A stretch of 64,000 nucleotides of DNA. Origin: Amoebophrya sp. A120. Taxonomy: Eukaryota; Protista; Dinoflagellata. Shown one piece after another: positions 3,526 through 31,704 of the stretch. Made by a program: the position numbers and the translations under genes. The DNA is taken from positions 926,004 through 990,003 of the forward strand of contig CAJINV010000012.1 of NCBI GenBank assembly GCA_905178155.1. Reading direction: 5' to 3'. Position 1 is the stretch's first letter. Every line of letters begins with the position of its first letter. The notes under the pieces are model-generated. The model ran no database searches. It was not told where the DNA came from and worked only from the letters and a program-made list of their open reading frames with translations.

Positions 3526-6500
3526 CTACAAGAAATTCCGTGCGTGTACTTTTTGTGGCTTTGAACGAACTGCATTGTTCTTGATGCACGCCAGTAAGCT
3601 ATCTTGATCTTGCTCCTCTTCTCCGATTTCTTGATCTTGAACGCCATCATGCGTTCCACTACTTTCTCGCTCCAATCCTCGTGTTCGCCCACTTCTGCCT
3701 TCTTCCCTCACCCCAGCTCCCCCGTCCGCCACACGGCCAAAAGTGCTGGCCGTTCCCATCGTCATCCCAATCGCCGGTAAAATCATCCCGAGACCCATCC
3801 CACTCGTGGCTAATGGGTGGATGTTCTGGTACCGGTCGTGGGCGAGCAAGTCGCTCGCCGCGCAGTTCAAGTGCTCGTACGCCCTACTGCCGCCGGACTG
3901 CACGCGGGAGATCTGCGCCGCTTGCTCGATCAGCATATGGGACTCTCAAGCGTTACATTCTCAACTGTTACGTGATTTGTCATGCAAATTTACCACCAAG
4001 ATCGCCGCGATTAAGCTGCTTCGCATGGCAAATCTTCGAAAGGCTAAACAGCATCAAATCTGTGCCAAATCTGTAATGCATAAGGCGCAATCTTCCCCCT
4101 TTCGCTTATTTTACCGCTCTTGCATTACAAATTCATGTAACAGTTGAGAATGTAACACTTGCAAACGCCATACAGCATCCGGGTGTCGTGCACTTTCGCG
4201 TCCATGGTGGTCGCGTCGGAGATCAGAGACTGGAACCACGCTAAAATCGAGGACACCATGAAGGAAAGCCCCGAGGTCGCCTCCGCATTGATGTTGCAAA
4301 TCGCCCGGTTTACCAGCTGCACGGTGTCCACGTCGAGAGCGACTTTGGAGGAGGATTCCGCTTTTTTCAAGTGTTCTAGCGCGTGTTTTAGGTGGAATAT
4401 GGGAGTGTCAGGATTGAAATCAACAATAAAGTTGAAATAGTATGGCTTGGGCAAAACGTTTATTTCGAGAAAGTTCAAAAATTTTTGTATGCATATTCTG
4501 CATGTAGTTAGTGTACGCATTGATTATTAATAATGGAGGATTAACTTGCATGATTGGTTGATTAGCATGACAGAAATGATAGGATAACTAATCTGATATA
4601 GCTAGTTAACCATAAGCTATGTAGCATTGTGGATTCGTGTGGGAACGGTCGCCAAACTCGAGCGGACTCCTCCTCCTCCTCATCGCCAGTTCGGATAGCT
4701 GTTTCTGCGGTTTCTCCATCCCAAGCCACCAAATGAGAGGCAACTGAAGGCACGACGTGCATGAACAGAGCGACCTTGTGCGAATGTGAACGTCCATGCT
4801 GTGCCTGTGAGTAGAGTTTTGAAATAAGATGTTGCGTAGCATGTTCCTGATAGAACAGAATCAATCTAGAAAACATATTGAGAAACAGAAAGAACAAATG
4901 ACGTAAGCTCTAACGTGAGAAAGAGATGTTTTTTTTTCCAGAGAAAGCGCGAGGGCTCACCGATAATTTGTTGCTTTCCCGGGTACAATGCACGAAAGAA
5001 AGAGCGTAGTTGTGATCAGATATCTTCTTGTCATCTTTTCATCTTTCGTCTTTGTTTTTGCTGGTTCAAATGCGTCTTTCCAAAACACAACCGTAGGGCG
5101 AATGATTAAGACGACAACACAGACTAATAAACGAGTGCTACCACAAAATGCGGCTGGTAGCGACGGGTCTCTTATGGCTCGGAGGGCCTACCTCTCCAAT
5201 GACTCCGTGCACGACTGTCGACTTGGTTTCCCTGGGGACCACTGCGACGTGTTCGGTGAACAGCATGGTCGTTGCCGCGTCCGGTAACGGGAAAGACGAC
5301 CCCAATGGTTTCGAGGACCGGTTCCGTAACTCCCTCCGCAACCTGGACCAGGGCGCGTTGCAGATGCGGACTCGTTTGATGCAGGAGCGGTTGGAGATGC
5401 TCGAAGCCATCCAGAATGGCAGTGTCATTCTATGAAAAGCAAACCTCTCTCTGATCATCCTACGTGTAGTTCTTTTGTCATGCTGGGGATGTTGAGTTTG
5501 TGTCTTGCAAGAACATCAAAAGGGCATGACGAGAGAGGTTTTTCCATAGCATAACTCTTGAACGACTTGCCCAACGCCCCCCTCGAACGCGGCATTGGCA
5601 GTACTTCGAGATCTACTCCTTCGAATACATTCCTGCTTTTTGTTTGCTCTGTAGGATGTTACTTGAACTGCAGCATTGATCTATATTTGCATGACAAGTC
5701 TGTATGTGCATTCGATTCAGCACTGTGCGTGTCCCTCAGTGTTGCAGTTCTTATATACATCCCACAACGCAAACAAAAACAGGCTGGCACCAGATTGGGG
5801 TTTCTGAGTGGTGTCGTCTCCTCAGCTGCATCGGTGGAATTCGTCTGTCTGTCTTACAAGCCCGTATTGTGGATGTCTCCCAAATTGAGTGGTTGTTCGA
5901 ACAGTTGGGTCTGTCCTTTCAGTGGCGGGTATAATTCTAACGCTGGTTTTTTGTCATGCAGAAAGGACGTTTTGATCATGCGGATACAGTGCTTTCCATT
6001 CTACCCACACATACACATTTGCACCAGCAAGAGGCACAGTCTTTGCGTTGAGTACGGGCTTGTCAGTACTAATCCATACAAAAATGACAAACAGATTCCC
6101 CGCGTCGATCGCCACCGTTCTCTGCGTATTTGCGCCCAGTTCTTGATCAACGAGCGCTCCCGCCAGGAGTGGCCCCGCCTGATTCAGATGTTGCCCTCCA
6201 AGCAGCAGCTCGACCAGAAGAAGTTGATGTCCATGCTCCCGCAGATGTTCGGTCCGCAGCCCCTCGCCCTCGGAAACGGTGCCTCTTCCAGCAGTTCCTC
6301 CGCGATTCCGATGGGGTATGCGCCCGCCACTCCGCATTCGCCGACGATGAGCCAGGTATCGATGTTTTCATATGATGAGAGTGATGTTTTTTCGTGTGTG
6401 AGACGACGTAATCTTTCCAATATTCGAAAACAGCAAAACTTCGCGCCGCAGGACTACTCGACGCAGGTCCCCACTGGTTCCGGCTCGCACGCGCAGTCCA

Positions 6501-9500
6501 TGTGCGAGCAGTTCATCTTGAGCATGCAGTCGAACGGGAACACGCAACCCGTGACGCAGCCGAACATGAACGGCCCCATCATCGCTCCGCCGCCCCCGGC
6601 TCCCACTTACACGTCCTCATCGTCGCCCCCGCCGACGATCTTTGACACCATGCCCCCCCAGGTACCGCCGCCTGGTACGACATGGGAGGTCGACGACGAA
6701 GGTGACACTGACGTCTACCAGGCCTCTGCCATCGCGGGTCACGGATTGGGCGTGCCCACGACCACCACGTCCTCCACCACCGACTTTTTCTCCCAGTTCT
6801 CTTCGGTGCAGGTCGTGCGCATGGAGTACACCCCGGCGGCCATTGCCGCGGAGCAGGAGGATGCGACCGCGGAGGATTCCGCGCCGAGTGATCAGGTGCG
6901 AATAGATGTTTCTTTGTATGGCAGTCGGTTATCCGCGTTGGTATGCTTCTGTAATGCGAAAGCCATGCTTTACCACCGGCGCATGATCATGTTGCCCGTG
7001 AGCGCCGTTTTTGGTTGAGCTTAATCTTAATGAGCCTGTACATGTATTCGCACAGGAACAAGGACTCATGATCGAGGACCCGGACTACTACGCCGAATTC
7101 GCGGAGGAGGACATCGCGAAGGCCAAGAAGATCCGGCGGGTCGAGGATGAGATCGCGGCCAAGGCGCAAGCCAAGTCCAAATCGAAGGCGAAGCCCAAGG
7201 CCAAGCCGATCCCGCCGAAGAAGCAGGTGTTCGCACCGAAGAAGATGCCCCGCTAGATGTGAGGACCTGTTTTTACGTTTTGTAGAAGCAGTCGACTCAG
7301 ATAGTGACTCGCTTTTGGAAATTTACAACAACGATTTACAACACCAAGAACTTCACAGCTTTGAAATTGCTTTACTTTAGTGAAGAGGAAGCGCACTCAC
7401 GAAACACTACTACCATTGATTTATTAGTTGACGCGGCTGTGCGCAAGATTACTACTGTTTCGGTCTCACAGAACTTACACTGCCCTTCGGGGTTTTTGGC
7501 GATACAAAACACCGCCCATACTAAAAACAATTACGAACTTCGACTGAAGAATACAAATTTTATGCAAAATAAATGCTGTCTTCGATGTCTTTCTTCGTGT
7601 TTTATGTAGAGCGACTATCTCGGAGTACTGTTTGACGAGTTTACCTCTAATAGCATGCGCCGTAGTTCTTATTTGTCTTTCGACAGTAAGACACAGAGAT
7701 CTTCCGGCCTCTTAGTGCCAATTTCCATTGTCAGCGATACAACGACGAGTCACAGGCTAGCAAGCAATGGAAGAGAAAGCAACACTGCTGATGCTTTTGT
7801 CATAGTACATGAACATACATACATGGGACGAGTGTCATAGAAGTGCAAGCTGTTGACTATGTGCTCCCCCGAGTAAACTTGTAAGTGGACTAAGTGGACA
7901 GAAGCAATGGCAAAAATGAAAAAGCACTGACGTAGAACGAAAGTACCTTTGTGCTCATCTGCTGTTCTGCACGTGATTGAACTGAAAACACAAGTCTACG
8001 CGGAATCGGTGTGGTATTATGTCGCGTCGAAAAAGAAGCACTACTCCGCCCGCAACGTCGGTTTTGATTATTTGAAGCGCGGGTCTCTGGGTGGGTTGTC
8101 GGTTGAATGATTTCTATTTGATGTAGATGCGCGCGCACGAATAGAAGAAGTAGTTGATATCCAAGGGGCGAGTGAAGCGCAAACCTGAGTGACTCCGAAA
8201 TTCCACCTACAGGCTCGCTTCACCTCGTAAGAGAGCTTCACCGTAATAGGAAACTCATGTAAACACCGCACACAGAGAGAAGTTGTAGTAGAGACCGAAC
8301 AGGATGAATCTGAACGGCGACAAGGCCGTCGTGAGCGGCCTTTTGGACCGTAACCAGGTCCAGGAGCGCGTGGAGAACCAGAAGTCGAAGACGAAGCGGT
8401 GGGATCACGTAGATCTCGACGGAGTTACCGGTCTTCCGATTTTCTGTATTCGCGGACTCTACCCGAGCCAGGGTGGAGTTGGTGCTTACCAGCACTCGAT
8501 ACCGTTGCGTCTGCGGCAACACCACCTCGTAGCGGACGCAGAGACGTTCACGCCCAAGGCTACCGCGAAGATGGTGGTATAGTTTGAATATCGCGTCTTG
8601 GGTCGTTGTCATGCAGCTATTGCGATGAAGATCATGACGCTCTACTTCATGTTGTGACTGCAATGGTAACCCGTTCTCCAAAAACAGACACACCTCCTTT
8701 ACTACCGCAAGATGGGTATGCACAACGCCGAGTGGACTCAGCTTATTCACGGGTGCGATTTCCGCCACATCATCGCGAATCTTCAGCACGGGAACATGGA
8801 GGACAAAGTGGAGGAGCTGCAGAACTGGTCGAAAAGCAAGCTCTTCAAGTACCGCATGGCAAACCTGGTGGAGAACAAGAAAAAAGAGAAGGTAATACAC
8901 GGTGGAAGTGCTTCACTTAGTTGCTCTTGTAGCGACAGCACTATCATGCAGGAGTAGATCACTACTCCGTCCGATTTAAACACAGCGTGCATTTTACCAC
9001 AATGACATCTTCAATAAAAACAAACTTTTAATGCCAGAAACTCTTCTTGATCGAGCATGGCGAATTCTGCGTCGCGGAGCGTATGCGATTCCGGAAACGG
9101 ACTGGAGCGCATAAGGACATCACCGCATTTACGGGCTGTGATATGAAGCCGCACGGACGCGGCCGGTATTTCCTCCACGATTTCGCCGCCCAACAGAAAA
9201 CGAAATGCTGCGGCACATTCGTATTAATTTTGTTTCATGTGACCACGTGCTCTTCTCATGCAGGCCTGGTTCCTGATGTCATGTGTCGAGTCTTCTTCTC
9301 CAAAAAACTTTCTCAGGTGCAATACACCGACATTGCGGAAGTTGCACCGCTGGCGCACGACGACGCCATCCGCCAGAAAGCGCTTCCACTGCGGAGGTGC
9401 AACACGGACTTGACGAACCCCTCGATTGAGCACGACGCTTCCGCACTGTCGGCTTTGAGTTTTCTCATGCACCTGTGCGAACTTTACGGTCAGGATGCTA

Positions 9501-12500
9501 CTCAGAAGATGTACACTCCGGCCGATACGCACTGGACGGACGTGGCGCTGGATCACTGGGGCGACGGCGACCTACAGCGGAATAAAATCCACATCTTCCC
9601 CATCATGGCATGTGACCAGGGCAGCCCGGAGGTGCGGTGCGCGCAAATCATCTTCACCATGCTGCAAGGCCACTACACCTTCGGACCCGCGCATTTTAGT
9701 AGTAATAGGGTGAAGAACTGCTGTCCCGAGGCGCGGGTGATTGCTGCCATGATCCGCAAGATGGAGCGTGGTCCATTTGGGACCTGCGAAAATCAGGGGA
9801 AGCTGAAAGGCGCTCTCGCATTTGCGCAGCAAGAATCAGTGCATCTCAAGGAGGACGCGAAAAAGCGACCACACGCTGATCAGCTGGTCGATGCGATGGA
9901 CGCGGCGGATCTGGAAGAGGCGCTGAAGATGATCAGTATTTTTTGCTGCTGCTTTCCAATGATGATCCTTCTAGACCTGCTGCGGAATCTCGTTACTTTG
10001 TGTCTAGTTTTCATCCCCCTCGTCAGGTGCCCCGGTTTAGTCCGCAATAATCTCACCATACCATCGCGCTTCATCCCCCTGGTGATCCCCATCGAGATCC
10101 CCATCAAGATCCCAACTTTTTATGCCCCCCCCCGGGACCCCTCGCGATCCCCCTTGAGTTCTGAATAGAATTTCTTCAACGTGTGGCTTTTCTGCAGCAA
10201 GTCGTCATGTCAGAATGTGCTTAATTCTCAGCCCGGTCGTAATTCTCGTTTGTCGTTGAAGCGGCGTTTTTATTTCCAACATATGAACATCAGATGTCTC
10301 CGGCTTTCATGGGACCGAATGCCGGTGGCGCCGCTTGATGATCACGATTGTATGATATGGAAAAGCGCTTTCCTCGTGGTTCAAGCAAACGAAAATGTAA
10401 TGCGTCAACACTGCAAATTTTATCAAGTTTTGTCATGCGGGGAAAGATCTGTTTTTCCATTTCATAAAGGCTGATGATGTTGAGCAAGAAGCAGCGGGCT
10501 CCGATGAAGTACTTGACGAAGTTTTTGTCTGACACCGAATACCACGATCCGAAGAAAATCTCCAATGAGGAGAAAAAGCGCATCGCGGCTAGCCGCTCGG
10601 GAGTCGCCTCGTATCAACCGAAGGAGGGAGCTATCGATATTGACGATAAGGATGAGGACGCGGAGGACAAGGACTCCGGCTGCCCGGCACAGTACAAGGG
10701 AACCGCAAAACCACTGCACGACAAGTTGTCCAAGATGGAGTTGTGCAAGATGCGGTGCGGATACGACCTCTGCAAGCCCGCCTGGGACTACTTCAACTGG
10801 TTGCGGATGTTTCATCAAAACAGCGCGAAGAACGGCTTGCGGATTTCCGATCCGATCTTTCAGAACTTGTCCAAAATGTTCGTCGGGTGGAACTGCGATT
10901 TCTTCGACAAAGACCACTACTCTCCAGTCGAATTCAATACACTGCAGGCCGTGTACCGCAGCAGAACCTGGCGTGTCCAGTTCTACGAAACAATCAAAAC
11001 GCTCCGGAAGTCGAAGTTGCACCGTGAGCGTGGCTTCCCGGTGATCAACAGAATCATCCTCAAATGGTACGAGGAAAACATGGACTTGCAGTTCGGCGTC
11101 TGGGAGCAGATGGCCAACAAAAAAATGACCATCCAGCTCGCCGACATGGAGCGGGTTTTCGAAGCGGCTTCGTTTCCGATCTCGGCTTCCGCGAAAACGG
11201 CGATGCAGGCGTGGCACCAAAACAAGTGCAATCTGGTCGAGGATTTCGCTTTCGAAAGTAACGCCCCGAAGAGTGCGATGGAAGAGGATGCGGAACAGCA
11301 GTTCAAAATGACGCACTACATGAAAACGATGGCGGACCCGGGGGAGAACTGTATGTGGCGCCGACAGTGCCAGCGGGCGATTGCCATCCAGCACCACGGT
11401 CATTTTTTACCGCCGTTGCGGCTCAAGCAGGCCGGCACAATCAACGATCTACCAGCGGAGGACTACGCGAAGATCTTCTGCATCTCCCGCAACCTGCATG
11501 GCGGTAACGCCCCCGGAAACAATTGCAACGAGGTGCATGTCAACAACACCCGCCAGGAGAAGGCTACCCATGCTGGTACGGAGGATAAATTCCACACCAA
11601 GCGGCTCACCGAGATGCTCCTCCAGCTGGAAACGTTGTACAAAAACCGCAGGTCGCTGCAGTTTCCCGCTACGCAGATCATCCAGCCCATGTACAACAAG
11701 GACTTGGGAGTCAAGGGCGCCACGACGTTGGGCTACCGCGGCGGGGAGGTGGAGGCGATCATCGACGGGGGGATTTCTTCCCAACACGAGCGAAAAGCGC
11801 ACGAGCGGTGCTCCGTGACTTTCTGGCATTCCGCCGACATGGCGCAGAAACTGCAGGAAGAGGGTTGTTTAATCGTCCAGCACATGGTGACGCACAGGCA
11901 CGGCGCTGTTACGGGGCAACACCTCGGAAAGGCCGTCGGTTTTTACCTCATCATCTGCCCGCACACGGAGAAACTGAAGGCCTTCGCTCCGGATGAGTTG
12001 CACGAGTCCCGGTTTTTCTGCGCCGCGCCGTCGCAGCTGCGGTGGTTAGACGCGAAATTCTTGGCGCCGGACATGTGTGAGTGCCCGCTCTATTTCGAGA
12101 TTCCGATGGGACCATGGATCGAGCCAGTCGACATCGTTCTGGAGAAGTTCCTCGACCTCACCGTCGACGAACAGTACGCGCTGACGAAGGACACCGTCAA
12201 AGAATTCCCCAAGTTGTCGAAGTTTTACTGGTCGCGGATGCCGGAGACGGCGCGGAAGAAGGCGTATCGCTACGCCTACGAAGGCGGGTTTGCGCAGCGA
12301 CACATGGACGAGATCGAGAAGAGGTGCAAACCGAAACTGATCATATTCGGCAAGGACGGCGACGAGTTCCGGCGGGAGCAGCAGCAGAACAAGGTGGACG
12401 AGTTAGCCGAACAAGCTGCCAATGATAAGCGGGTGCACCAGGAACAGGTGAATAAGCGGGACTCGATGACACCAATGCAAAAATCACTACTATCTCATCT

Positions 12501-15500
12501 CGTTTTGTATTGCGCAAAATCACGCATGACAAAATGCATGACAAGAAAAGTTCTTCACTCAAAGCTCCGTGCTGTTTTTGCATGACAAATATGAAAATGC
12601 AAAACGAGAAGAGATGGTAGTCGTTTTTGATGTGATAGCCCGACGGCAAGACAAACAATCACACCCGGCTGCCGGCGCAGAAGGTCATCAAGTACTACGG
12701 CAAGGTCGAGGGAAAGACGAAATTGTTAGCGGAGGTCCGGCCAACGCGCTCGTCTGCCCACATGGACGACATTTTGCGGCTGCGGTGGCCGACGGATCAC
12801 GTCGTGAGATCCGCCATCAAGTACGCAACCGCGCCCAGCAAGCCCGACGCCATGGCGAACGCCGAGAGCCTGCTGTTGCCCAAAGTGTTGACGTCGTACG
12901 GCTTGCTGAGGTCGCAGGTAACAGTCGAAGTCGATAAGTGGGAGGAAGTGGACTATGACGTGTATGGTTTTGATGATTACGGATACCGAATCCGCGAACC
13001 GCCGGCAAGCAGCAGCTCCAAACCGACCGGGTTGAGCGACAACGTGAACAACCGGAACAAGCGGAATTCTTTGGGTGGTGATGCTGAGTTTCTGGATGAT
13101 GGTGATACTAAGAAGAAGCAGAGAAAAGGTTAGGTCGTCAGCATATGTCTACTTGATTCAGTATTGGTCTCCATGTTTCTTTACACAATTACTACAGTGA
13201 AAAACATATTTATACACGCGAGTAAGTACGATGAAACTATATCAGTGATCATGAAGAGACAGACCCAACAGCCACTACCTTTCCCTCCTTTTTCAGGAGG
13301 AATTTTCATCAGGATTCACGATAATACTCATTGCTGCACTCCAGCAATGGGAAAATTTAGAAATCGCCTATCTGTGAATAGGTTAACAAAATTCAAACTG
13401 CAGCTGTGCAGTTTATAAAAATTTGATTACACAAAAGATGAAAAGTATGGAAGTGCTGTCGAAGAACGACAGCAATGCAAATTATTAAAAAATACAATTG
13501 AAAAGATAGTGAAATAGTAAAGAAAAGAAGCACTATCAGACATTACCCGAAGGCGCGCCACATCTATCCGAAAAGTGCAAAACTTTTCGTGATGAAAAAT
13601 TAATTTTTGTATACCTTTCGATTTATTTTCCCACCGGTACTACTTGTAATAAGTCACACCATCAAAACTGCTCTCATTCTGACCGGGCCCTTGCTCTGGA
13701 GCTGGAGCTTGTGCTGTTAGTGTTGTCTATTTTCCGCTTTTTCGGTGCAGATTTTGCCAGTTCCGGGTCGGTTTGTTGTGTTGCTGTCGTTTGCGAAGTG
13801 TCGGCTGTGTCGGTTGTCGCGTTCAGGACCAATAGGATTTGGTCAGCAATCCGATCGGCAGGTACGAACCAACTCTCGAGCCACGTCCTGCGCGGCTTTT
13901 TAATCTCGGTCATCAGCGCCGGGTAGGCTGCCAAGGTAGTTGTCCCGAACTCCCTGTGGATGGATAGAAGTACTCGGTTGAAAACGAAACCCAATAGATG
14001 GTCGCGCTTGCACATGAATAAGCTGCACATTACTGCTACGCATCACAAGTTTCAACATTGTTGTAGTTTTTCTGTCATTTCTACTTCTGCTCTACTGTCC
14101 TGGCACGATGTAGAACCACGCCCACCCTAGAAGCACGCTATTTATACTTATCCGGTTCGTAGATAAATCCATGCTTCCGCAGCTCTTCCCACGGGATGAG
14201 TGCGCTGCTCTTCAAGGGCTTCCCGTAAAGGTGCCTCTCGTCGAAGGATCGCGCGTGCAACAGCAAGAAGTCCGCGTCATCAACGCGGTAACATTCTCCG
14301 TTGGCTCTGTGTTATGTGTTGTTGCTGTATTCAAAGCGAATAGCGAGGCCGGCTATGGGAGCGGTACACAATGGCGTCGGGCAGTTGAAAAAGTACAAAA
14401 ATGCCTTGTCATCTTGCAGCGCAAGGCGATCGGCTCTCCCTTCCGGTCTGTGCGCCACACCAAGTTCTTCTCCTGCACGCGATAGAGAGTTCCATCAGGA
14501 TCGCCTCTCTTGACGATGCACCGATCAAACCCGCCGTATTCTCGTTCGGGGGTAACGTACTGCAATCCACTACCGCGGAGCTGGTGCTCAAAGTAATCAC
14601 GAGAATCCGCCTCCCTCAAGGTAGCCGCACTGTAAACGTGCGCCCTTGGGTCAAAGGGAGCCAACAAATGCGGACGTGATTGGAGCAGGTTCTGGAGGTG
14701 TGCCACGAGGTTGGCTGGCGGTATGTTTTCGCTTGGGTCGTTCAGTGAGTAGCCGTCGTAATCCCGTTGTCTATGGACAATGTGAACGAAAACGTCGGCC
14801 GCGTCGTCGCTCGTGATACCAATAAGAGTGAAGTTGTGCCAGGCACTCTTGTGCCCGTTTAGTGCGAGTCTGATCTTTCGCTCCCAGGCGTCGGCTCTGG
14901 AACTGCCACCCTTGATCTGCACCGTGGCCCAGAGCTCCACCGTGTTCAAATTTTGCGTAAAAGTGTCGTCCTTATTTGCCACTAGGACGTCACTACTTAA
15001 CTCGTGGGTTCGTCGGACGATGAAATGCTGCTCCAATAAGCGAATAAATTCACTAACGCTTTTGTCCTCCGCGTTCTTTGGAATGCTGCCCATCAAACAG
15101 CTGCACGACGTTCAGATGCAAACAAAATCAACAACGTACAGCCTCAAGCGTGACCTAAATCAGAGTGAGAGAAAGTATGTGGCTCAGAGTAGTCCTCCGG
15201 GTGGGGTGTTTCTAAATCAGCCTACTATGATCACCAAATCTCAGGGCCCTGCGATGTTCATTCCCATCACGTAGTAAACGCCTACCCTTATTGGTATAGT
15301 ATCAGACCACTCCCTCTACGTTCTTGCGCATCACATTCATTGCAATACTAGACCGATGGGCCATTTCTGTGTTGTTGTTGACATTGATTCATCTGATAGG
15401 ACCGATCCAGTAGTGTCGCGTAGAGCTAGCATCAAAAACATGGCCTCCGTCGCCGATCTTCGACTTGTCTCGCCGCCGTTCCGACACGAATCCACAATGC

Positions 15501-16015
15501 TACATAGCTTATGGTTAACTAGCTAACTCAGATAAGACTATTATAGTTCAAGCATAATCAAGCTGCATGACCAATCAGTTTGGTAGCTAAACATGCACTG
15601 GAGTACTACCATAGAACATAATATGAAACATGCATACAAAAATTTTTGAACTTTCTCGAAATAAACGTTTTGCCCAAGCCATAAATAGTAACTTGTAATG
15701 CATAAAATCGCTACCAGCTGGAAGCCCACTTTCCCAGCGGTGCATGACAAATCTCGGCACCGCCTAAATCCAGTTTGTCATGCTGTTTAGGCACAGAAGG
15801 CGTCTTTTGTCGTGCTACTTTAGCAGCTCTATCGTAGACCCCAAACAGGGTGGCAGTAGGCCTCACTTGCCATCTCTGCAAGAGAGGCACTTCGTGCCTT
15901 ACAGTTTATGCATGAGAAATTATTTCAACTCTGTCGATTTCAATCCTGACCCTTCCATATGGGACTGGAGAAAAATCGTGTCCGGCTGTCCGCATTCCAC
16001 GACTTTCACCGGCAT
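3526..16015 (-). CDS. Hypothetical host protein (~226 aa) whose first intron contains the 11.2-kb transposon
   Basis: Exons 16015-15960, 4392-4173 and 3930-3526 total 681 nt and join in frame: MPVKVVECGQPDTIFLQSH|LKHALEHLKKAESS...HDTRML|IEQAAQISRVQ. The C-terminal frame is less certain. Confidence 0.7.
3936..4172. mobile_element. Introner, TIR family III (237 bp)
   Basis: TIRs tatgggactctcaagcgttacattctcaactgttac / gtaacagttgagaatgtaacacttgcaaacgccata. TSD CAGCA at 3931-3935 and 4173-4177. Removal restores the ORF. Confidence 0.92.
5148..7256 (+). CDS. Transposon accessory gene A: Pro/Ser-rich protein with a Lys-rich C-terminus, function unknown
   Basis: Coding-like exons at about 5148-5418, 6094-6355, 6434-6895 and 7056-7256, bounded by G(T/C)..AG sites (ccag|gtatc, aacag|caaaac, tcag|gtgcg, cacag|gaacaa). 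How exon 1 links to the rest is uncertain. Confidence 0.6.
8304..13133 (+). CDS. Candidate divergent DDE transposase, multi-exon, more than 1200 aa
   Basis: Phase-0 GT-AG introns 8577-8711 and 8892-9037 join the first ORFs. Further exons at about 9038-9930, 10470-12447 and 12639-13133; exons between 9930 and 10470 are unresolved. Motifs CNTDLT (D 9407), IMACDQGS (D 9614), FGPAH (H 9692) and NCNEVHVNNTR (E 11530) resemble the D...D..xxH...E layout of P/hAT-like transposases. The function is inferred. Confidence 0.6.
13674..15096 (-). CDS. Tandem PD-(D/E)XK-like nuclease with a C-terminal NLS-like motif (5' end may extend upstream)
   Basis: Two D...QxK motifs (SDVLVAN...VQIK; FDRCIV...RVQEK). 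GC-AG intron 14404-14307 and GT-AG intron 14147-13954 join in frame to CYRVDDADFLLLH...LIPWEELRKHG and EFGTTTLAAYP...PKKRKI. Confidence 0.62.
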
Positions 16016-16559
16016 AGTTGAAGATTTCGTGTGTAATTATTCTTGTCCAATCACGAGGAGTGAGGTTGTAATTCTGATTTCAAATTTCCTGTCGAGCAGG
16101 AGCTCCACCACGTTGAGCAAAAAGCTGAAGGCTGACTGAAGCTAAGTCACGATTTTGTGTAATCGGTCCTGCTGTCCAGAGCAACAGTAGCAGCGAAAAC
16201 GATTTCGATTTCGATCTGAACGACAACGATAAAAAGTGCGATGTCGATGAATTTCTCGACGACCAAAGCAAAATGCTTCTTGTACTTACAACTAGAAGAG
16301 GACAGGCGCGAAAAGTATGACGACGAACATCTTTCTACAGCACTCCAAATAACTCGGGCCCGTTTATTTTGCGACTGCGACAAGAAGAACATATTTCAGA
16401 TACAAATTTCAGTACAGGAACCACCTGATGCACAGCAAGATGGACCTGTTACCACGGTAGATGCGATGAAAGCGGTCGGGCTTCGCACCGCCCCAGCAGT
16501 AGACAATCTTGATCCCACTGGAAAACGCTCTCCATCAATTATCTGTCGCTTTATTTATC

Positions 16560-17812
16560 TTAATCTTTCGCGAATACCCATCTGGCGCTTCCAAACTCGA
16601 CAATCGTCTTTCCGGAAAACGTGTGTCCCTCCGCCGCGAGTTTCTTTTTCTGAAGTAGAGCTGCCGACATGGTGCCTTCGCCCCCTCCTCCTGCGTTCTC
16701 ATCCCCGCCGGCAGACTTTGCTTTGCTTGAGCTTGGCTTGTCCTTTGCCGCCTTGATGTCTTTGCTGGTTTTATTGTTTTTGTCATTGGACTTCCGAACC
16801 GATTTTTCTACCTTCATCTTCTTGTTCTCAGCGGACGAAGTTGCTATCGCCTTGCCCTTCACCTTCTCCGCCTCCCTGACCTTCTCATCCACCACCGCGC
16901 CGCCCTTCAATGAGATTCCGCCGCTGCTGTTCACACACCGCCACCAGGGCACGTCGTTCACATCGCAGTCCCGCATGTATGAAATGCAAAAGTGTCTGGG
17001 TCTGGAAGAGTGTGAACTTGTCATGCAGGTTTTCCATGACTCTTGAGGTCTGGAATGCGGCACCTAGCACGACAGAGTCTGCGACGTCTCTTTCATGCCT
17101 ATCCTGCATGAGAAACTCCCTCCCAACTTGGTCGAAAGTGGACAGCTACTTTTGGCACTCATGCAACACAGACTTTTGCATGGTTCGGATTTAGTATGAC
17201 AAGTTGCAATCTTCCAGACCCAGACATTTTTGCAATCCATAGCATGGCGAATCCGACGTGTCTCGCGTGGTTGGGGAGTTTGAGCGCGACGGCAACGTCC
17301 TTGTAGGTGGTAACTTTTCCAGCGGGGACTATGACTTGCTCAAGCGTTACAATCTCAAACGTTACAATAGAATCTGGAATTTGTGTTGCATGATGAGCAT
17401 GACAGACTCGCACAGCGCTCCACCTTTTGCAATACAAATTTCGCCAGATTGTAGTGGTTTTTGGGGCTCCGGAACTTGTCATGCGCAATCCTATGAGGGT
17501 TGGCTAGATCCTGCACTCTTGCATCACAGATTTCCATATTATATTGCAAACGTTTGAGATTGTAACACCTGAGCGGGTTATAGGGACCTGCTTCACTTTC
17601 TCGTACACGAGTTGAGGGAAGAGCTTCCTGGGAGGGGAGGAGCTTCTATTCTGCATCTTCCCGTTCTGCTGTTTATTTTGGTCGTGACGCTCTTGATTTA
17701 TTTTGGGAGTACTAGTGGTGGTGGTGGTTTTCCGCTTTTCAGTAGTGTTTTTCGAAGAAGACGAGGAGGAGCTGGGCGCTGAGGTCGAAATGGACGAGGA
17801 GAATATTGCCAT
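16560..17812 (-). CDS. Alkyltransferase-like (ATL/Atl1, MGMT family) DNA-damage-binding protein (~241 aa)
   Basis: Exons 17812-17583, 17324-17242 and 16972-16560 (726 nt) give VYEKVKQVPAGKVTTYKDVA...ARHVGFAM...DVPWWRCVNSSGGIS...KKLAAEG. Trp occupies the MGMT catalytic Cys position (PWxR), as in ATL proteins. Confidence 0.88.
16978..17241. mobile_element. Introner, TIR family I (264 bp)
   Basis: TIRs tatgaaatgcaaaagtgtctgggtctggaag / cttccagacccagacatttttgcaatccata. TSD GCATG. Removal restores HVGFAM|RDCD. Confidence 0.95.
17330..17582. mobile_element. Introner, TIR family II (253 bp)
   Basis: TIRs tatgacttgctcaagcgttacaatctcaaacg / cgtttgagattgtaacacctgagcgggttata. TSD GGGAC. Removal restores KQVP|AGKV. 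Confidence 0.95.
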
Positions 17813-18566: not shown

Positions 18567-21306
18567 CTAGTTGTTCTCCCCCGCGCCCCATTCGCCGGTC
18601 CCCATGTTTTTCGTGGACCGCCCATCCACTACCGGGTTCTGGGCCTTCATGTAGTCGTTGTCGATCCCGACGTTCCTGATCGTGTGCTGTTTCGCCGCCG
18701 CGCGCGATTTCTTGATCGCGGCCTGAAACTCCTCAATCAGCGCTATGTCGCTGTCGCTGAACCCGAGCTTTTGCCGGTCGTAGAAAACTTCTTGGAAGTA
18801 CGGGTCGAGCAAAGGTCGCAACGCGAGTTTTTTCTCCCGTATGTTGAAGAGGGATTCGAGGATCATGGCAAACTCCCGACGGAGAAAAGCCTTCATGACC
18901 GCGTCGTTTGGCGGACGGTAGCGGTAATTTTCGTCCTCGTCGTTCTCTTGGTTCTCGTTGACTAAATTGTTCTCTGCTTGGGAATCGACAGAACTGGCAC
19001 CGGGACCGGGCTTGTTCTGCTGGGACCTGAGATTCGAGGTTTTTTGAGGGGGGAAATTGAGGATTTGGGAGAAAGGAGATACGCCTCATTGTTGAAGACC
19101 TCTTGCAGGAAAGCAGTCATCAAGCCGCTGGTGCAATAGAGGACAACAATGCAGCACAACCAGCACACTGTGGACCCTGATGAAGCAGGAAGATTCTCAC
19201 AAATTGAACAAAAAATCACGTACATAATTGAATAAATTGGAACGCAACTCTTTTCTTTGAAATCAGATTTCAAAAAAAAATCAAACTACCTATTGCCGTC
19301 CCCGGAGGACTTTGCGTCCAATTCCTGCTCCTGCGCGAACAACTGGTCGTGGTTGACTTTCCCCACTGCCGCGCCGAAAAAATCATCCTCGTCGGATTCC
19401 TCCTCGGAGTTGTCGCCTGCTCCTGCGGGGGAAGATGAAGCTGCAGCTGCTTGTTGGTGGGGCTCTTGATCTGCTGGTTCATCTGGTGCAGCTGCACCAG
19501 GCCCAAGACCTTCTTCCTCTATTCTTCTTCTTTTAGGGGAACTAGAATGATCTTTGTCAGGTATAATTCTAGCATTACCCCCACCGTAATTGCTGATCCC
19601 GCCGACGACAGACACAGCGTCCTCTCCCGCGACCGACATGTTGTCTTGATGTTCCGCCAGCATTTGTTCCTGCTGCAAAATCTCCGCGGAAATGTCGTGC
19701 ATCGCATTTTCGCCGTTTGTTGTTCCCGCTGCACGACCAGCTGCTCCAGTAGTGGAGGAGGAGGAAGAAGATCCGCCAGCGATGTTGCTCCCGAGATTGA
19801 TGTTCGACGCCGTGCCTCCATTCTCCCCAACATCGTCTATCTCCTCCTGCTTCACCACGCCTGTGGTCTCCGGCGCGACAAACGCGGGAAACACCGTGTC
19901 GGCGTTTTTCGGCAAACAAACGTTCCGCATTTCCTCGCTGTTGTTGAACTCCAAATCCGGTTGGATCACTTCGGCAACGAATTCCCGGACGAGTTTCATG
20001 CACCGTTCCATCTGGAAGCTGTCGTCCGACTGTTGAATCTTTAAATGGTTCAAGATCAACTGCCACAAGATTTTCACCAGGGGGAACTTCTCGACGAAGT
20101 CGATGTTCAGCTCCAGCATCTTTTCAAACACGATCTTCACATCGTTGAAGGATTCATAGTGCTGGCACGCGTGGCCGGTTTGGACCAAGCGCTGTATGGC
20201 TTCAAACGCGTAACACCGATTATCCCAATCCATCTGTTCCTCCACCCACCGTTTCAAAAACGGCATGGATTTCGTGAACCGCGGCCGCTGCTCGATGTGC
20301 TGCAAAACCCGCTTCAGCATGTCGATCGCGTCGATGGGTTTGTTCATGACCGTCGGAAGTTGCTTCTTGATCTTCTCCGCTTTCAGTTTCAAATACTGCC
20401 GCTTCATTTTCATGCGGATTAACTGCTCCTTCGTCAAGGGGCGGCCGTTTTGTCCGGGGAGCAGCGCAACTCCGTGCTTGTTGTACTGGTGTTTGGAAAA
20501 GTGTAACCTCCTCGCGTCCTGCTCCTGCTGCCGTATTCGCGCGATGTTCTGCGCGTGCTTCTTCATCTCCTTGGATTGGTGGTTGTAAAATCCGTCTAGC
20601 TCCCTTTCCTTCTATGACAGTACACAACTCCCCCTCCCCCTTGTTTGTCATGCAAAATACCCAATCCACCCCTTGCCTCTTGGCGCTGTTTGCATGAGAA
20701 GTTCTGGTAGCCCAAATAGCACTACACTCCAGTGCAGATTTGTCATGCAAAACCGGCATTCTTGCTGATGCTTGTATTGCCGCTCATGCTACACAAATGA
20801 GGGGGAGGGGGAGCTGTGCACTGTCATACCTTCCGCGACCGGCCCAGCAGCTGCTCGGCCGGCTTGTTGAAGCGACGCTGCACCTGCTCGAAAGCTTCGT
20901 TGAGCTGTAGTTGTTTTTTATAGGGTTTTGTTGGCGTTGTAGCAGCACTACAAGCAGATCACATTATTTCGTAGTCGTTCTGCAACTGCATCTGCTCATG
21001 GAATAAAACTTCATCTTTAAATAACGCGACTGCGAGGTCCTCGTCGCTGTGGCTGTGGTCCTACATGAAATATTAACACAGACTCAAATAGAAACCTGCC
21101 GTAAATAAACCAGCCAGCAAATACTATACCTTCGCAGCCTCGTACTTCTTCGCGTCTGCATCTTTTGTTTTCCCAGTCGCCTGCAATTTCGCGACTTCCT
21201 CTTTCAAAGCCTTCCATCTTTTTTTCACCCTTTGTCGCACGCGCTCCAGATCCGCCTTCGTCTTAATCTGGAATTCCTCGAAGCCAACCAGCTTGTAGCA
21301 ATCCAT
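18567..21306 (-). CDS. Multi-exon hypothetical protein with an N-terminal J-domain-like region lacking HPD
   Basis: MDCYKLVG...EAAK, then a GT-AG intron, then LNEAFEQVQRRF...RSRK, then an introner, then ERELDGF joined to ORF 19286-20566, then an intron and a last exon ending at 18567. The J-domain resemblance is weak. Confidence 0.65.
20613..20828. mobile_element. Introner, singleton TIR family (216 bp)
   Basis: TIRs tatgacagtacacaactccccctccccct / agggggagggggagctgtgcactgtcata. TSD CCTTC. Removal restores RSRK|ERELD. Confidence 0.92.
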
Positions 21307-22145: not shown

Positions 22146-24065
22146 TCAGGCAAACGTGGTAATCAAATTTTTCCCGTATTCAACCATCACCCTGTCCATG
22201 TTTTTTCGCATGTTTGCCACTTGAGTTATCAAATGCAAAAATGTCTGGGTCTGGAAACTTGTGATGCTGGGTGGCGTATCATGAGGAGGCCACAAGTGCT
22301 CGCTCAGCATGACAAGTTTCTGAGCTTCTAGGTGTTGCCTATTCTGCATGACAAACTGCGTTTCTACATGACAGAAAAATGGCGCTCTTGGGTAACGTAC
22401 ATGACAGATTTGAGAGTCATGCCAGAGTAGCATGACAAACATGCACTGTTCCAGACCCAGACATTTTTACACTTGATATGAATCAGATTTTGATGATTCC
22501 TCATGTTTGACAACGAAGTGGTGTTGGTCAAGCCAGTGTAAGCAGATGACAAAGCATCAGCAGACAGAAAGCCGCCAGAACTCATTGTCGTATAATTCCC
22601 ACTGGCGTTCCGCATCACAATCTTTGACACCGTCTCCGCCGGATTTGCCGTCTTCACCCAGTACCCGTGCAATGTGTTCCGTTCGAAAAACGGAAAAAAG
22701 TCGAGTTTCAGAGGCTGCCAGACTTCATTGGACGATGAGAATTGGTTGTTGTCATCGAGCGTGGGGGAATCGGATTCGGACATGGAGGAACTGGACGCGG
22801 AGCTGAGAGCCCGTAAATGCCCGCCCGTCGTGTAATCGATAACGTGCCCGTATTTCGTCATTGTAGTGGAGGAGGAAGAGCCGGTACCTGTTATTTTCAG
22901 TGGGTAAAACTTATACGTCGACAAGTTCAACAAAAAACGTACAACTACCTAGCCATCAAGTGAATGTGGACCTTGAAATATTCACATGACAATCAAATGC
23001 TTGTGCCTGATGAAACTCCGCATCCGCAGTGGAAAGGAACATTGAATGCGTCAGCTATCTATCTCTTTGTAAACACATCTATATACCGTGGTCCATCTCC
23101 CCGGTAATGCTTTTCCTAACCGGCGGCAAGCTGACGCTGAGCAGTGCCCGCAAGCAAGCCAACGCACACGTTTCCGACAATAACCCCGGGCCGTAGGCGG
23201 AAGCACTAGAAGACGACATTGAATCGCTACTCGCCGCATGATTGTAGTGAATGACGCAGACCTTCAGCGTGAAGTGCCAATAGCACTTTTTCTCCTCGAC
23301 TGTGATCGTGTTTTTGTTCAAAATCTCTTTCGACTGAAACAGTTTGCGCAGCTGGTCGCACAGGGTCAGATTCCCGAAATCCTGCGGTCGGTAGTTTTGA
23401 GGTTGATGTTGGTGAGCAGCGGTGGAAGAGGAAGACGCTGCCACACCTGGTCCTCGTCCCATGGGACTACATCCATGATCCTCCTGTTCCTGCAACAATA
23501 ATTTCGCGACCTGTTCCGGGCTTCCTCTAACCGTCTGCTGCGGTGCTCCTGTGCCTGTTGTCTCGATTTTCCGCCTCTTCTGCACGTGCTCGGCGATCAC
23601 TTGCTCTGGTGTTTTATTGACGCCCACAGACGCGTCAGACGTGCCTGATGTGTTTCCTGCGTGCTCCATGGCGAACGATCTTGTCCCGCCGTCAGTCATA
23701 TTTGCTGCTCTTCGTTTACTCTCTTCATATTCCGCGCTTCCCATCTTTTGGAATCTTCTGCTCCGAAACGGGTCCTCTGAGCTGTACTTTGGGAGTTCGT
23801 CGACGTAAATCTCCAAGTCCCGGGGAAAATCTTCCACCAAATTCCCCTCGACAATACATGCGACCTGCGTGTTATGGTACCACACGAGGGCGGACCCGAG
23901 GCTCTGGCTGTGGAAACCCACTTGCACCGTCGGGGACAGGATCTCCGTGCTGTCGGTCAGGGAGTTATCATTTTCGTCGTTTCCATGTTTATCTATTTCT
24001 CCGGGTGGGCTCTGGATGTTGATGACAGCATCCCCATTCTCCTCGAAGTCCACCTCCATGGTCAT
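22146..24065 (-). CDS. Hypothetical multi-exon protein
   Basis: ORF 23079-24107, a probable GT-AG intron (about 22950-23120), an exon of about 22948-22479, introner 22227-22478, and a last exon ending at TGA 22146. The junction NLIQ|VANMRK is in frame. Confidence 0.6.
22227..22478. mobile_element. Introner, TIR family I (252 bp)
   Basis: TIRs tatcaaatgcaaaaatgtctgggtctggaa / ttccagacccagacatttttacacttgata. TSD TGAGT/TGAAT (4 of 5 match). Confidence 0.9.
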
Positions 24066-25042: not shown

Positions 25043-28000
25043 CTATCGAAACGCCCCACCACTGCCATTCCCTCCACCTCCGACTCCACGACGTCCGAAA
25101 TCTGTTCGCCTTACCACGCGCTCAAAATTATTTAAGTTAAAATACATCCGACGCGGGTGCCAGGAATTTGTGTTGCTATGGTAGGGATTGTTGTGTACAA
25201 CTGAGTTGCTAGTTCTATTGTGGTCTATCTGAGATGAGGAACTATTGTTCGGCGGTCCAGGACCACTTATGTTATACCCACCTGCCCCCGTGCTATCTTC
25301 TATCTTCATCTTCTTACTCAGGTAATATTCCTCCGCGTGCCTGTATCCGTACTGTCTTCTCAACAGCGACAAACAGCAGCCGCACAGCAGTCTTTTCACC
25401 ACGAAGTTCAGTAGGAGTTTCCGGATGAGCAATTGGTACAAGGTCAGAACCAAAGGTTGGAAGAAGCTTTCCCAAAAGGGGATGACTGTCGTGAAAACTT
25501 TTTCCAAAAAGTTTTTCTTCCGCCACCTTTTTGCACTCGCCGCCGCGCTGATCTTCCGCGACAACCCCGTTCCGCTTCCGTGCTGAAAGATCAAGCCAAC
25601 GTCCTCCTCGTCGTCGTCCGTTTGGTTCAAAACAAAGTTTTCGATCATATCAATTGTAAAAGTGTCTGGGTCTGGAATGTTGCCAAGTTTATCATGCATA
25701 TTTTGCATGACCCAGGATGTCTGTAATGCACGGCCTAGCATCACAGATTTTTAGAGGGCTTCCTGATGCCTACTCCGCATGCCAAATGCCCTCCCCGCGT
25801 AGCACAAACTAGACTCCTCTTGCTGGTCATGCAATACGGATTTTTTTAGAATCCAAACGCAGCATCACAAGTTCCAACTTTCCAGACCCAGACATTTTTG
25901 CAATCCATAGATCACAACTTTCAACACTTCTTGCAGAATTTCCTCCACCCCCAGCCAGTACCAAATGCGGCTGAAGCAGGATTTCTTCCGGTTTTTGTAC
26001 TATGACCTGCTCAAACGTTACAATCCCAAGCGTTACAATAGAATTTGGAAATCTGTGATGCAAGAAGTGCATGATCTAGCCAAGTTTCATAGGATTACGC
26101 ATGACAAGTTCCGGAGTCCCAAACCGCACTACAGTCTGCCAGTGCCAGTATTTGTGCTGCATAAAGTGGAATGGTCTGCGAGTCTGTCATGCTCATTATG
26201 CGAGACAAGTCCCAGATTCTATTGTAACGTTTGATATTGTAACGTTTGAGCAGGTCATATGTACGCCAGGTGTTTCCTGTGCTCGAAGTTGTTCTGGAAG
26301 TTATCTTCCGGAAACCTCGGCTTTTGTACTAGATTCTGGTCCACCCGGCTGATTTCCTTAAATTTCGCGTGAAACAGCACCGCCGGGACCTTGAACGTAC
26401 CGTCGGGGAAGCACCACTTCTTGAACTGTTTCTTTTTGAACTCCAGCTCCTTCGCGCGGAGTTCGATTTCCTTCTTCAGTGAAGTGCGGCGCTCCGATAT
26501 CCACAGTAAATTTCCCGTACACGTACACATGCGGTCTCTGCATGAAAGAACTTGGCTTCCATCCTAGTCTAGCATGACAAGTTTTCGGCTTTAAATTGGT
26601 GAAATTTGTGATGCATCTTGTACATGTACGGAAAATTTGTATTGCGTATCCGACTCCAGCATGACGGAAACGTAATTGATCGTGCGGAGTTCCTCTTGCT
26701 TCAGATTCAACTCCGACTGCAGCTGTGTCAATTCCTGCACCGTGATAAACCGATTCTCGATCTGGTCGCTGCCGATCATGGTGTTTGCTGATGTCGTTCT
26801 TGATGTGCTATCAGAAGTTGTACTCGCCGGTCCTAAAAGTTGTGATCCGCCCTTAATATTTTGCTGCTGCTGCTGTTTCAGCGATTGCTCCTCTTGTTCC
26901 GCGGCTGTCAGCTGCACCGTTTTCACGGCCGGGCACACGTAGCTGCACACTTCCGTGATCGTTTTCCCGCTGTACTGATCGACCGCTATCAAATGCAAAA
27001 ATGTCTGGGTCTGGGAGGTTGCCGGGTTTGTCATGCATATTTTGCATGACCAATCGCGCCTGTAGTGCATGACTTAGCATCACAGATTTTTGGAAGGCTT
27101 TCTGATGCCTATTCCGCATGACAAATGTCCTCTCCGCGTAGCACAATCCGGGCTCCTCTTGTTGGTCCTGCAATACAGATTTTTTTAGAGTCCAAAGACA
27201 GCATGACAAGTTTGGATCCTTCCAGACCCAGACATATTTGCAATGCATAACCGCTAGAACCGAACAGTTGATCAGAAACAGCTCCCGCAGTCCGAGGTTC
27301 TTTTCGTGCAGGGGAGAGGCTTCGTTGATGATGTGCTTGATCGTCAGAATGCCGCCGTTCGGGCTGTGCACCGTGAGCATCGTATGGAAGTGTCAGGTTT
27401 GAAATCGTCAAAGTTGAAATAGTTTGTCATGCATAAAGCGGAGACCAGTTGGAAGACCAATTTCCAAGCGGCGCATGACAAATTTTCTGAGCACCGAAAT
27501 CCAATCTGTCATGCTGTTTGGGCACAGAAGAGTGCTTTTGTCATGCTCCTTTAGCAGCTCTATCCCAAACCCTAAATAGGCTCGAAATCTGCCTCACTTG
27601 CAATCCCTGCAAGACAGTCTTTTCGTGCTTTGCATTTTATGCATCACAGATTCTTTCAACTTTGTCGATTTCAATCCTGACACATCCATACATCGGGAGA
27701 AGTTGGTATTGCGCCGGGTGGTATCAAATGCAAAAGTGTCTGGGTCTGGAATAGTGGAACTTGTGATGCGTGTCTTGCATTCCTGGAAAATCTGTGTTGC
27801 ATGAGCAGCAAAAGAGGAGCTTGCTTTGTCATGCAAAAACGCAATTTGTAATGCGTGGTAGGCATCAGCAGGCCTCTCTAAAACTTGTCATGCCTGGCTG
27901 CCATTAATACAAGCGCTTCAATCATGCTCAATTCAGCATCACAGATTTCCAGACCCAGACATATTTGCAGTGCATAGGTGGTCCTGTAAAAGTTGGTCGA

Positions 28001-31000: not shown

Positions 31001-31704
31001 GCCGCGGAAGTAAAGGCTTCGGTGTCGCCCTCCCTGAAAAAGAAGTCGTCCATAAAGTAGCGCCACAGGTCGTTCCCCGGTCGATTCACGTAGCGCGCGA
31101 TGCCGCCCTTGGTGCCGAAATGGTTCTGCGTCTGGCGGAACTCGTTGCGCCGCGTGATCAGCTCGTGCCCGTTGTAGTACACATCGCCCAGCGGGTCGGC
31201 CACGATGCTTTCTCCGTAGAAGTTTTTCCGCAAAAGCGCTGCCGCGGAGGAGGGAGAACTGGACGCCGCGCCGCCCAGCTCCAAGTCGCCAAATTCTTCC
31301 GAGTACACCTCCTTGATAAATTATCCAAGAAAAAAACTGTGTTAGTGTAACTTTGGTTTCTTTGGTTGACAGCATCACAAATTTGGTCTACATGACAGAG
31401 AAAGCCTGTCATGCGCGGCTTGTAAGGGAAAACACTACACGTGATAGGAGGACTCCATGGTTGTCTGGCATGACAGGTGTAACTCTGATGCATGTTCTGC
31501 ATTACAGAGTTACACTTACACAGGTTTTTTCTTGGATATAAATTTGTGCTTCTCGCTGGCGAACTTCTGGATGGCCTTGACGCGGGCGATGGTGAGCCCC
31601 TGCCGGAAGATGCTCGTGGCGGGAATTTTGCGGTTCTGCTTCTGCTCCTCATCCGTGTTGATTTGCGGATCATGCTCCTCGGTGATGCTATTCAGGCTTA
31701 GCAT
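25043..31704 (-). CDS. Inward-rectifier K+ channel (Kir/IRK)-like protein, ~1555 aa, 9 exons
   Basis: Exons 31704-31539, 31316-30383, 30138-27977, 27716-27691, 27377-27250, 26981-26649, 26492-26260, 25995-25910 and 25642-25043 total 4668 nt, in frame. Two TM segments plus Kir-like motifs GVIVARFLQP..LCFSHACCV, PELVLRLMVIRENVILV, IKHIINEASPL, AVDQYSGKT and LFHAKFKEI. Confidence 0.8.
25648..25909. mobile_element. Introner, family I (262 bp)
   Basis: Family I TIRs, TSD GATCA, in-frame junction VVI|ENF. Confidence 0.93.
26001..26259. mobile_element. Introner, family II (259 bp)
   Basis: TIRs tatgacctgctcaaacgttacaat / attgtaacgtttgagcaggtcata. TSD TGTAC. Junction LAY|KNRK. Confidence 0.95.
26498..26648. 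mobile_element. Short introner (151 bp)
   Basis: IRs tatccacagtaaatttcccgtacacgtaca / tgtacatgtacggaaaatttgtattgcgta. TSD TCCGA. Junction MLES|ERRT. Confidence 0.88.
26987..27249. mobile_element. Introner, family I (263 bp)
   Basis: Family I TIRs, TSD ACCGC, junction VLAV|DQY. The interior is closely similar to 25648-25909. Confidence 0.95.
27383..27690. mobile_element. Introner, family IV (308 bp)
   Basis: TIRs tatggaagtgtcaggtttgaaatcgtcaaagttgaaa / tttcaactttgtcgatttcaatcctgacacatccata. TSD CATCG. Confidence 0.95.
27722..27976. mobile_element. Introner, family I (255 bp)
   Basis: Family I TIRs, TSD GGTGG. It leaves a ~26-nt micro-exon (DH|PAQYQLLPM|LTV) next to element 27383-27690. Confidence 0.93.
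30144..30382. mobile_element. Introner, family III (239 bp)
   Basis: TIRs tatggggttctcaaacgttacatcctcagctgttacatga / tcatgtaacagttgagaatgtaacattttgagaacgccata. TSD AAGCA. Junction QLCF|SHAC. Confidence 0.95.
31322..31538. mobile_element. Introner, singleton family (217 bp)
   Basis: TIRs tatccaagaaaaaaactgtgttagtgtaact / agttacacttacacaggttttttcttggata. TSD TAAAT. Junction HKF|IKEV. Confidence 0.93.

Follow-up and report, generated by a model that had tools for sequence, protein, structure and literature searches.

A probable hAT-like transposase in an 11-kb element with introner-like ends in Amoebophrya sp. A120

More than 60% of the introns in two Amoebophrya genomes are non-canonical, and 29,850 repeated introners have been reported from strain A120 (Farhat et al. 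2021, PMC7789003; this and the other papers cited by identifier are represented here by parts of their text). These introners have a mean length of 240 bp, start with TAT, show an A-run at about 11-14 and are bounded by a 3-5 nt direct repeat. In the parts available, that paper states that introners carry no transposase and that none was found in A120, and takes this lack to exclude a general transposase-driven spread. A 2025 survey gives the superfamily as Unknown in 54 of 56 A120 rows (of 58), with one Ginger and one Mutator (PMC12130899), and the available part of a 2024 review names no enzyme (PMC11282704). Two kinds of described transposase invite comparison: the hAT enzyme Hermes, which works through hairpins formed on flanking DNA and depends on His268 and Trp319 (PMC4763223, PMC5225508), and the IS3EU/GingerRoot group, whose elements have TAYGG..CCRTA or TA..TA ends, repeats longer than 30 bp and sometimes extra genes (PMC10045372, PMC12730594). 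Here we describe a stretch of 64,000 nucleotides from Amoebophrya sp. A120 (assembly GCA_905178155.1, contig CAJINV010000012.1, positions 926,004 to 990,003 of the forward strand; hereafter the window), in which an 11,243-bp element with introner-like ends carries a gene that we are confident encodes a DDE transposase. We consider it likely that this is a cut-and-paste enzyme which moves its own element and, in trans, short TAT..ATA introners. No report of this transposase family was found in the literature searched; Roy et al. 2023 and Repbase, which lay outside its coverage, could change this.

The large element has TATGG..CCATA ends and a five-base duplication, AATAG, that is exact on both flanks (Table 1). 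Its inverted repeats are perfect over 54 bp and imperfect over about 210 bp overall, with a TGTATGC box at position 46 of the left one; the outer and inner blocks are kept and the middle block has diverged, a pattern in the letters that fits constraint on binding sites. The element is itself nested, having been inserted 43 bp into the left arm of another introner (the host introner). Once the large element and one AATAG are subtracted, the host introner measures 314 bp and is identical in 269 of 319 columns to the uninterrupted paralog at 61172-61484, and in a DNA run other copies of the host-introner family read straight across the insertion site. The same run returns the element interior (4611-15513) as one 10,903-bp contig with 0 differences and no second contig at least 80% alike. 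The depth of this contig is 23.8, against 26-27 on the adjoining host contigs; contig depth is no copy number and the run may itself be the source of the window, yet a single interior contig, similar depth and hardly any sequence at least 80% alike are together consistent with a single copy.

The large element leaves RNA without canonical splice sites, as part of its host introner. One contig (X3 record 2), from a second sample whose RNA nature is guessed, carries the joints 3930->4173 and 4392->15960 with 0 other letters, the latter taking out all 11,567 bases exactly. The former removes the short introner 3936-4172, and at both introns the element and one copy of its duplication are dropped, scar-free, with the host frame staying open. 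A contig from a sister run of the same sample (X4 record 10, 4366-4538) crosses the left junction of the large element, so the insertion is present in that sample. Contigs of low depth in the runs guessed to be RNA reach no further into the long intron than its left end (4366-4954), which would fit unspliced precursor near the 3' end of the host gene.

The window is rich in short elements of 216-314 bp that share this anatomy: a TAT start, an ATA end and 5-bp direct repeats. A 5-bp repeat matching at 4/5 or better flanks 15 of 40 arm pairs, compared with 0-2 in five shuffles, and the fifteen short introners listed in Table 1 belong to several families. In a set of 17 TAT..ATA elements, selected for their TAT ends and a repeat of 5 bp, 14 have an exact 5-bp duplication and none has an exact one of 6-8 bp. 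Two features of the short arms stand outside that selection, namely A13, present in 30/32, and a TGT(N)ATGC box, located at 33-45 in 21/32; the large element shares A13 and has its box at 46. Published A120 introners and the large element have in common the TAT start, the A at about 11-14, the direct repeat and removal from RNA as a non-canonical intron; unlike them, the large element is neither short, nor repeated, nor non-coding, being 11.2 kb long and coding. One further TAT..ATA element (49702-50027), with arms alike at 23/25, is not bounded by a 5-bp duplication. In the window the motif TGTCATGC is found 45 times, within introners and just upstream of several canonical acceptors (5952 and 9254 among them), and it may be a splicing or binding signal.

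The transposase gene is modelled in seven exons, from a start codon at 8304 to a stop at 13133, with an open frame of 1,262-1,268 aa. An earlier annotation made without database searches (the sequence-only reading) had arrived at the same bounds. A profile of 14 homologs matches the open reading frames (ORFs) 9032-10165, 10468-12582 and 12639-13130 in order (E 3.6e-23, 2.7e-72 and 1.9e-16), which indicates that the three belong to one gene, and gives a weak match (E 0.59) on the micro-exon 10294-10349. The two protein lengths differ by the fifth intron: GT-AG introns throughout yield 1,262 aa, and taking the element 10351-10466 plus 5 nt as the fifth intron yields 1,268 aa. Either the removal of these bases or a GT-AG joint to 10489 restores the frame; compared with the homologs, the spacer between exons 5 and 6 is 1-2 residues longer with the former and about 4 shorter with the latter. 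A reading ADDVEQ..FV-stop at 10470 was ruled out by third-position GC content (GC3) and homology. The exon joints are predicted ones: no RNA data set was listed as containing the sequence and no RNA contig lies over the gene in X3-X5, blanks that say nothing about expression, and three raw RNA runs gave 1-10 partial reads only, all on short repeats, with no bearing on expression either. Intron 4 contains a 12-bp tandem repeat (10073-10113).

A HMMER scan of 1.84 billion representatives returned 13 hits, 12 of them real (E 9e-19 to 2e-5); P0002, a repeat protein matched over 41 residues, was dropped. Three further homologs came from clusters of hits and one from a profile search. All homologs with an organism name are from Amoebophrya, with nine divergent loci in strain AT5.2 and one in A25, and two clusters have transcript-derived members. 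Such a distribution is typical of a transposon family. The window protein is 16-21% identical to the homologs, and the alignment runs end to end; a quick tree puts it on a long branch, and nothing is concluded from that tree. No Pfam match above cut-off was obtained for 7 ORFs of the window and 12 homologs, nor for another 8 proteins and another 16 ORFs, the ESM Atlas gave no usable match for exon 4 or exon 6, and the PDB searched by sequence gave chance rows only (with the profile, none). A word-index search with exon 4 found nothing and one with the family profile found 2 proteins, and no related loci appeared in metagenome contigs or viral contigs.

The sequence-only reading had proposed a D-D-(xxH)-E layout made of Asp at 9407 and 9614, His at 9692 and Glu at 11530. 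All four codons exist in the contexts it quoted; they fall in two separate ORFs, and the layout therefore depends on splicing. In an alignment with 13 homologs, counting only rows with a letter at the site (P0011, P0014 and P0018, which duplicate retained rows or are fragments of them, were excluded, as was P0012), the Asp at 9614 (8/8) and the His (7/7) are invariant. That reading had also proposed invariance of all these acids as a test, and here it fell short, as D9407 (2/8) and E11530 (1/12) vary. Conservation places the first Asp at D9179 (7/7), which lies in an exon that the sequence-only reading had not used. Further on, an RW pair at 10323-10328 is conserved (R10323 11/11, W10326 9/10), and D11083, E11104, E11281 and E11293 are each present in 13/13. 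The catalytic Glu is most likely 11293, with 11281 a possible alternative, and 400 aa lie between the second Asp and the Glu. Judging by motif order, the Trp at 10326 is likely the match of Hermes W319. The Gly at the C/D position before xxH had been noted correctly: the residue three before the His is G in the window protein and P, A or G in 7/7 homologs, and C or D stands there in 0/7 of the His-bearing ones.

Structure prediction points in the same direction. In the AlphaFold model of the homolog P0013 (mean predicted local distance difference test score, pLDDT, 69.5; below 50 around the first Asp), strands end at the first and second Asp, the His opens a long helical stretch and both Glu candidates sit on one later helix. 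Hermes came first of 48,161 chains in a wide search (Z 6.7, root-mean-square deviation 5.0, 347 aligned), with model residues 52-656 on Hermes 144-605; Tn5 (Z 4.4, 192) and ISCth4 (Z 4.1, 215) align to the same span, and HIV integrase reaches only Z 2.4. A second look with VIA again put Hermes on top, in five entries (Z 5.9-7.0, about 345 residues). Hermes E572, a number we assume to be right, falls on the 11293 Glu in model 1 when mapped by end offset. In the P0014 model a region towards the C-terminus is similar to SH3/KOW barrels, with Z values up to 5.7, and may bind DNA. The predicted fold is an RNase H-like core with a helical domain inserted into it, nearest to Hermes. By itself the fold is suggestive; it becomes convincing once the motifs and the element are taken into account. 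The earlier proposal of a divergent transposase with an insertion domain is backed by family conservation, fold comparison, and the inverted repeats with their duplication, although the sequence-only reading saw neither the large element, nor its nesting, nor the link to introners. Its placement in the P/hAT group holds in part: hAT, through Hermes, is the nearest fold, while P/THAP9, like RAG and Transib, was not among the matches listed in the fold searches.

Compared with hAT elements and Hermes (PDB 8edg, 8sjd, 4d1q, 2bw3), the window protein has in common the predicted core with a helical insertion domain, the order D, D, His, RW, E and a cut-and-paste anatomy. However, its invariant His has neither C nor D at -3, so the C/DxxH signature is absent. 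The usual hAT duplication is 8 bp, and the 5 bp seen here match only the exception of hAT5 (PMC12730594). Repeats of 5-27 bp and lengths below 4 kb are given for hAT (PMC3517528), in contrast to repeats of 54/~210 bp in an element of 11,243 bp. The protein, of about 1,265 aa, has some 500 extra C-terminal residues with the predicted barrel, and the element carries passenger genes and is spliced from RNA. No Pfam hAT C-terminal domain or BED finger was detected in 15 homologs or the window ORFs, which divergence may mask. The C/DxxH group that includes the P element/THAP9, MULE, Kolobok and Dada (PMC10045372) likewise has an insertion domain and a His that lies after the second Asp and before the Glu, but the window protein lacks C or D before the His and its element has a 5-bp duplication. 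No Pfam match to a THAP domain was obtained. Since the C/DxxH signature is absent, and the element departs from the size limits and usual duplication of hAT, we file the protein as a new hAT-like lineage and not as hAT; the gene is probably a real, intact copy.

We propose that the enzyme, which very probably moves the large element at 4441-15683, would bind the TAT..AA end together with the TGT(N)ATGC box that lies some 41-46 bp further inside, would excise the element by a chemistry that we borrow from Hermes (hairpins on the flanking DNA, with roles for the counterparts of His268 and Trp319), and would make a cut staggered by 5 nt on reinsertion. The many introner families would then be accounted for by diverged relatives of the enzyme whose elements differ in their inner repeats, and that this transposase family drives the short introners seems to us likely. 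Insertions would be tolerated because the cell removes the element and one duplication copy, as seen at two introns. In its fullest form this hypothesis states that an undescribed, superfamily-level hAT-like lineage without C/DxxH powers the non-canonical introns of Amoebophrya, which number tens of thousands, and that the 11-kb element is its intact master copy, hidden in an intron and spliced out scar-free. Toward this fullest form we lean, though not strongly.

Several observations weigh against this interpretation. Nine named homolog loci come from AT5.2, a strain in which introns are predicted to be 99.98% canonical and, in the parts of the paper available, no non-canonical introns are reported (PMC7789003), hence the family can occur where introners have not been reported. 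Ends of the TA..TA kind are found on integrase-like IS3EU/Ginger elements as well (PMC12730594, PMC10045372, PMC12130899). Past the terminal pattern, the arm of the large element agrees with the best short arm at only about 17/25 letters, so that no short element of the window came out as its direct deletion derivative, and with no second interior contig there is no other insertion site for comparison. The homologs in AT5.2 and the limited arm identity would also suit a division of labour, in which the transposase moves only its own large element, another enzyme resembling the IS3EU/Ginger integrases moves the short introners, and the ends are alike through convergence or limits set by splicing. 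IS3EU ends read TAYGG..CCRTA (PMC12730594), family 38 of the A120 introners has a 5-bp duplication, and one A120 family that combines a 5-bp duplication with TA/TA ends is labelled Ginger (PMC12130899). We nevertheless regard such a division as unlikely. It is the enzyme that sets the length of the duplication, which is 5 bp for large and short elements alike and usually 6 bp for IS3EU; A13 and the box near 41-46 are common to both sizes; and no integrase domain was found among the ORFs of the element that were scanned. In its ends and in repeats longer than 30 bp the large element resembles IS3EU, but the IS3EU core is compact and integrase-like (PMC10045372, PMC12730594), in contrast to the Asp-Glu gap of 400 aa seen here and to Hermes as the best fold match.

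The structural evidence has its own weak points. The folds were computed on the homologs P0013 and P0014, about 19-20% identical to the window protein, and all Hermes scores lie below Z 8, a range in which the tool warns of a common arrangement. Foldseek gave nothing significant for P0013, with Hermes holding the highest probabilities (E 0.46-0.62). In the P0014 model the first strand is unresolved, VIA ranked Hermes 8 (Z 5.2, 309 residues, still the longest), and Hermes was not among the matches listed by Foldseek. In model 2, what we take to be Hermes E572 maps 4 residues past the 11293 Glu. Together with the want of significant Foldseek matches and of Pfam, PDB-sequence and Atlas matches, Z values of 5.2-7.0 would suit a protein that is no transposase, whose resemblance to Hermes reflects a common helical arrangement and whose acids serve another enzyme. 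This we find very hard to believe, because Hermes gives by a wide margin the longest alignment of both wide searches (309-347 residues), three unrelated transposases of the DDE type fall on one span, the order D-D-H-RW-E is that of Hermes, and the element around the gene has inverted ends and a duplication. Nor do we give much credence to the idea of an 11-kb non-autonomous introner of the Pack type carrying captured host genes, one of which would be a domesticated transposase-derived gene. The one apparent copy, the two or three extra genes inside and the six introns of the transposase gene would agree with it, but in one related strain all nine divergent paralogs have the residues wherever their sequences cover them, and the outer and inner repeat blocks have been retained despite the diverged middle.

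If the transposase is indeed the source of the introners, its having been overlooked would be explained by an element that codes for protein yet shares the introners' ends and duplication, and by an enzyme that Pfam profiles do not recognise. The gene also adds a candidate for a new lineage of DDE enzymes, and with the enzyme, its residues and its DNA ends now named, intron creation becomes directly testable in yeast or in vitro. Independently of the enzyme, an intron with non-canonical ends can hold 11 kb and still be excised exactly from RNA.

Table 1. Coordinates of the large element, its genes, the host introner and neighbouring introners (positions in the window)
Feature	Coordinates	Strand	Remarks
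Large element, TATGG..CCATA ends	4441..15683	.	11,243 bp; inverted repeats and duplication
Left 5-bp target-site duplication copy	4436..4440	+	AATAG
Right 5-bp target-site duplication copy	15684..15688	+	AATAG
Left terminal inverted repeat	4441..4657	+	outer 54 bp perfect, middle diverged, inner 4588-4657 (89%)
Right terminal inverted repeat	15467..15683	-	
Host introner	4398..15959	.	TGGAA/TGGGA duplication at 4393-4397, 15960-15964
Host-gene exon left of intron	4173..4392	minus favoured by frame test	RNA contig X3 record 2
Host-gene exon right of intron	15960..16181	.	RNA contig X3 record 2
Transposase exon 1	8304..8576	+	GT-AG, open frame, GC3 0.73; aligns to N-termini of P0015, P0016, P0003
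Transposase exon 2	8688..8891	+	GC3 0.79
Transposase exon 3	9038..9220	+	predicted first catalytic Asp, codon 9179, motif HDF; 7/7 homologs
Transposase exon 4	9317..9935	+	predicted second Asp 9614 (DQGS) and xxH His 9692
Transposase micro-exon 5	10294..10349	+	HGT..RW, R 10323, W 10326; 3' end 10345-10350 by model
Intron 5, worn TAT..ATA introner-like element	10351..10466	.	arms 17/25, duplication lost
Transposase exon 6	10467..12447	+	helical insertion domain, D 11083, E 11104, Glu 11293 (alternative 11281), predicted SH3/KOW-like barrel
Transposase exon 7	12639..13133	+	conserved C-terminal domain, basic tail; profile E 1.9e-16
Passenger gene(s), one or two, low complexity	5106..7256	+	introner-like stretch at 5431-5553
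Passenger gene, probably three exons	13674..15093	-	basic PKKRK tail at end
Short TAT..ATA introners 1-5	3936-4172, 16978-17241, 17330-17582, 20613-20828, 22227-22478		5-bp duplications
Short TAT..ATA introners 6-10	25648-25909, 26001-26259, 26987-27249, 27383-27690, 27722-27976		5-bp duplications
Short TAT..ATA introners 11-15	30144-30382, 31322-31538, 34810-35043, 52024-52267, 61172-61484		5-bp duplications

Besides the transposase gene, the large element carries the passenger genes of Table 1, for which no Pfam match was obtained on either side; the first exon of the minus-strand gene found no homolog among proteins of 134-429 aa, and Rfam gave no match within 4300-16000. Worn introner-like inverted-repeat stretches lie within the genes of the element at 10351-10466, at 5431-5553 and, by eye, at about 12486-12620. 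Elsewhere in the window, 33200-59500 holds a gene block of 7-9 kb in three to four tandem copies that have diverged, with nearly all ORFs on the minus strand.

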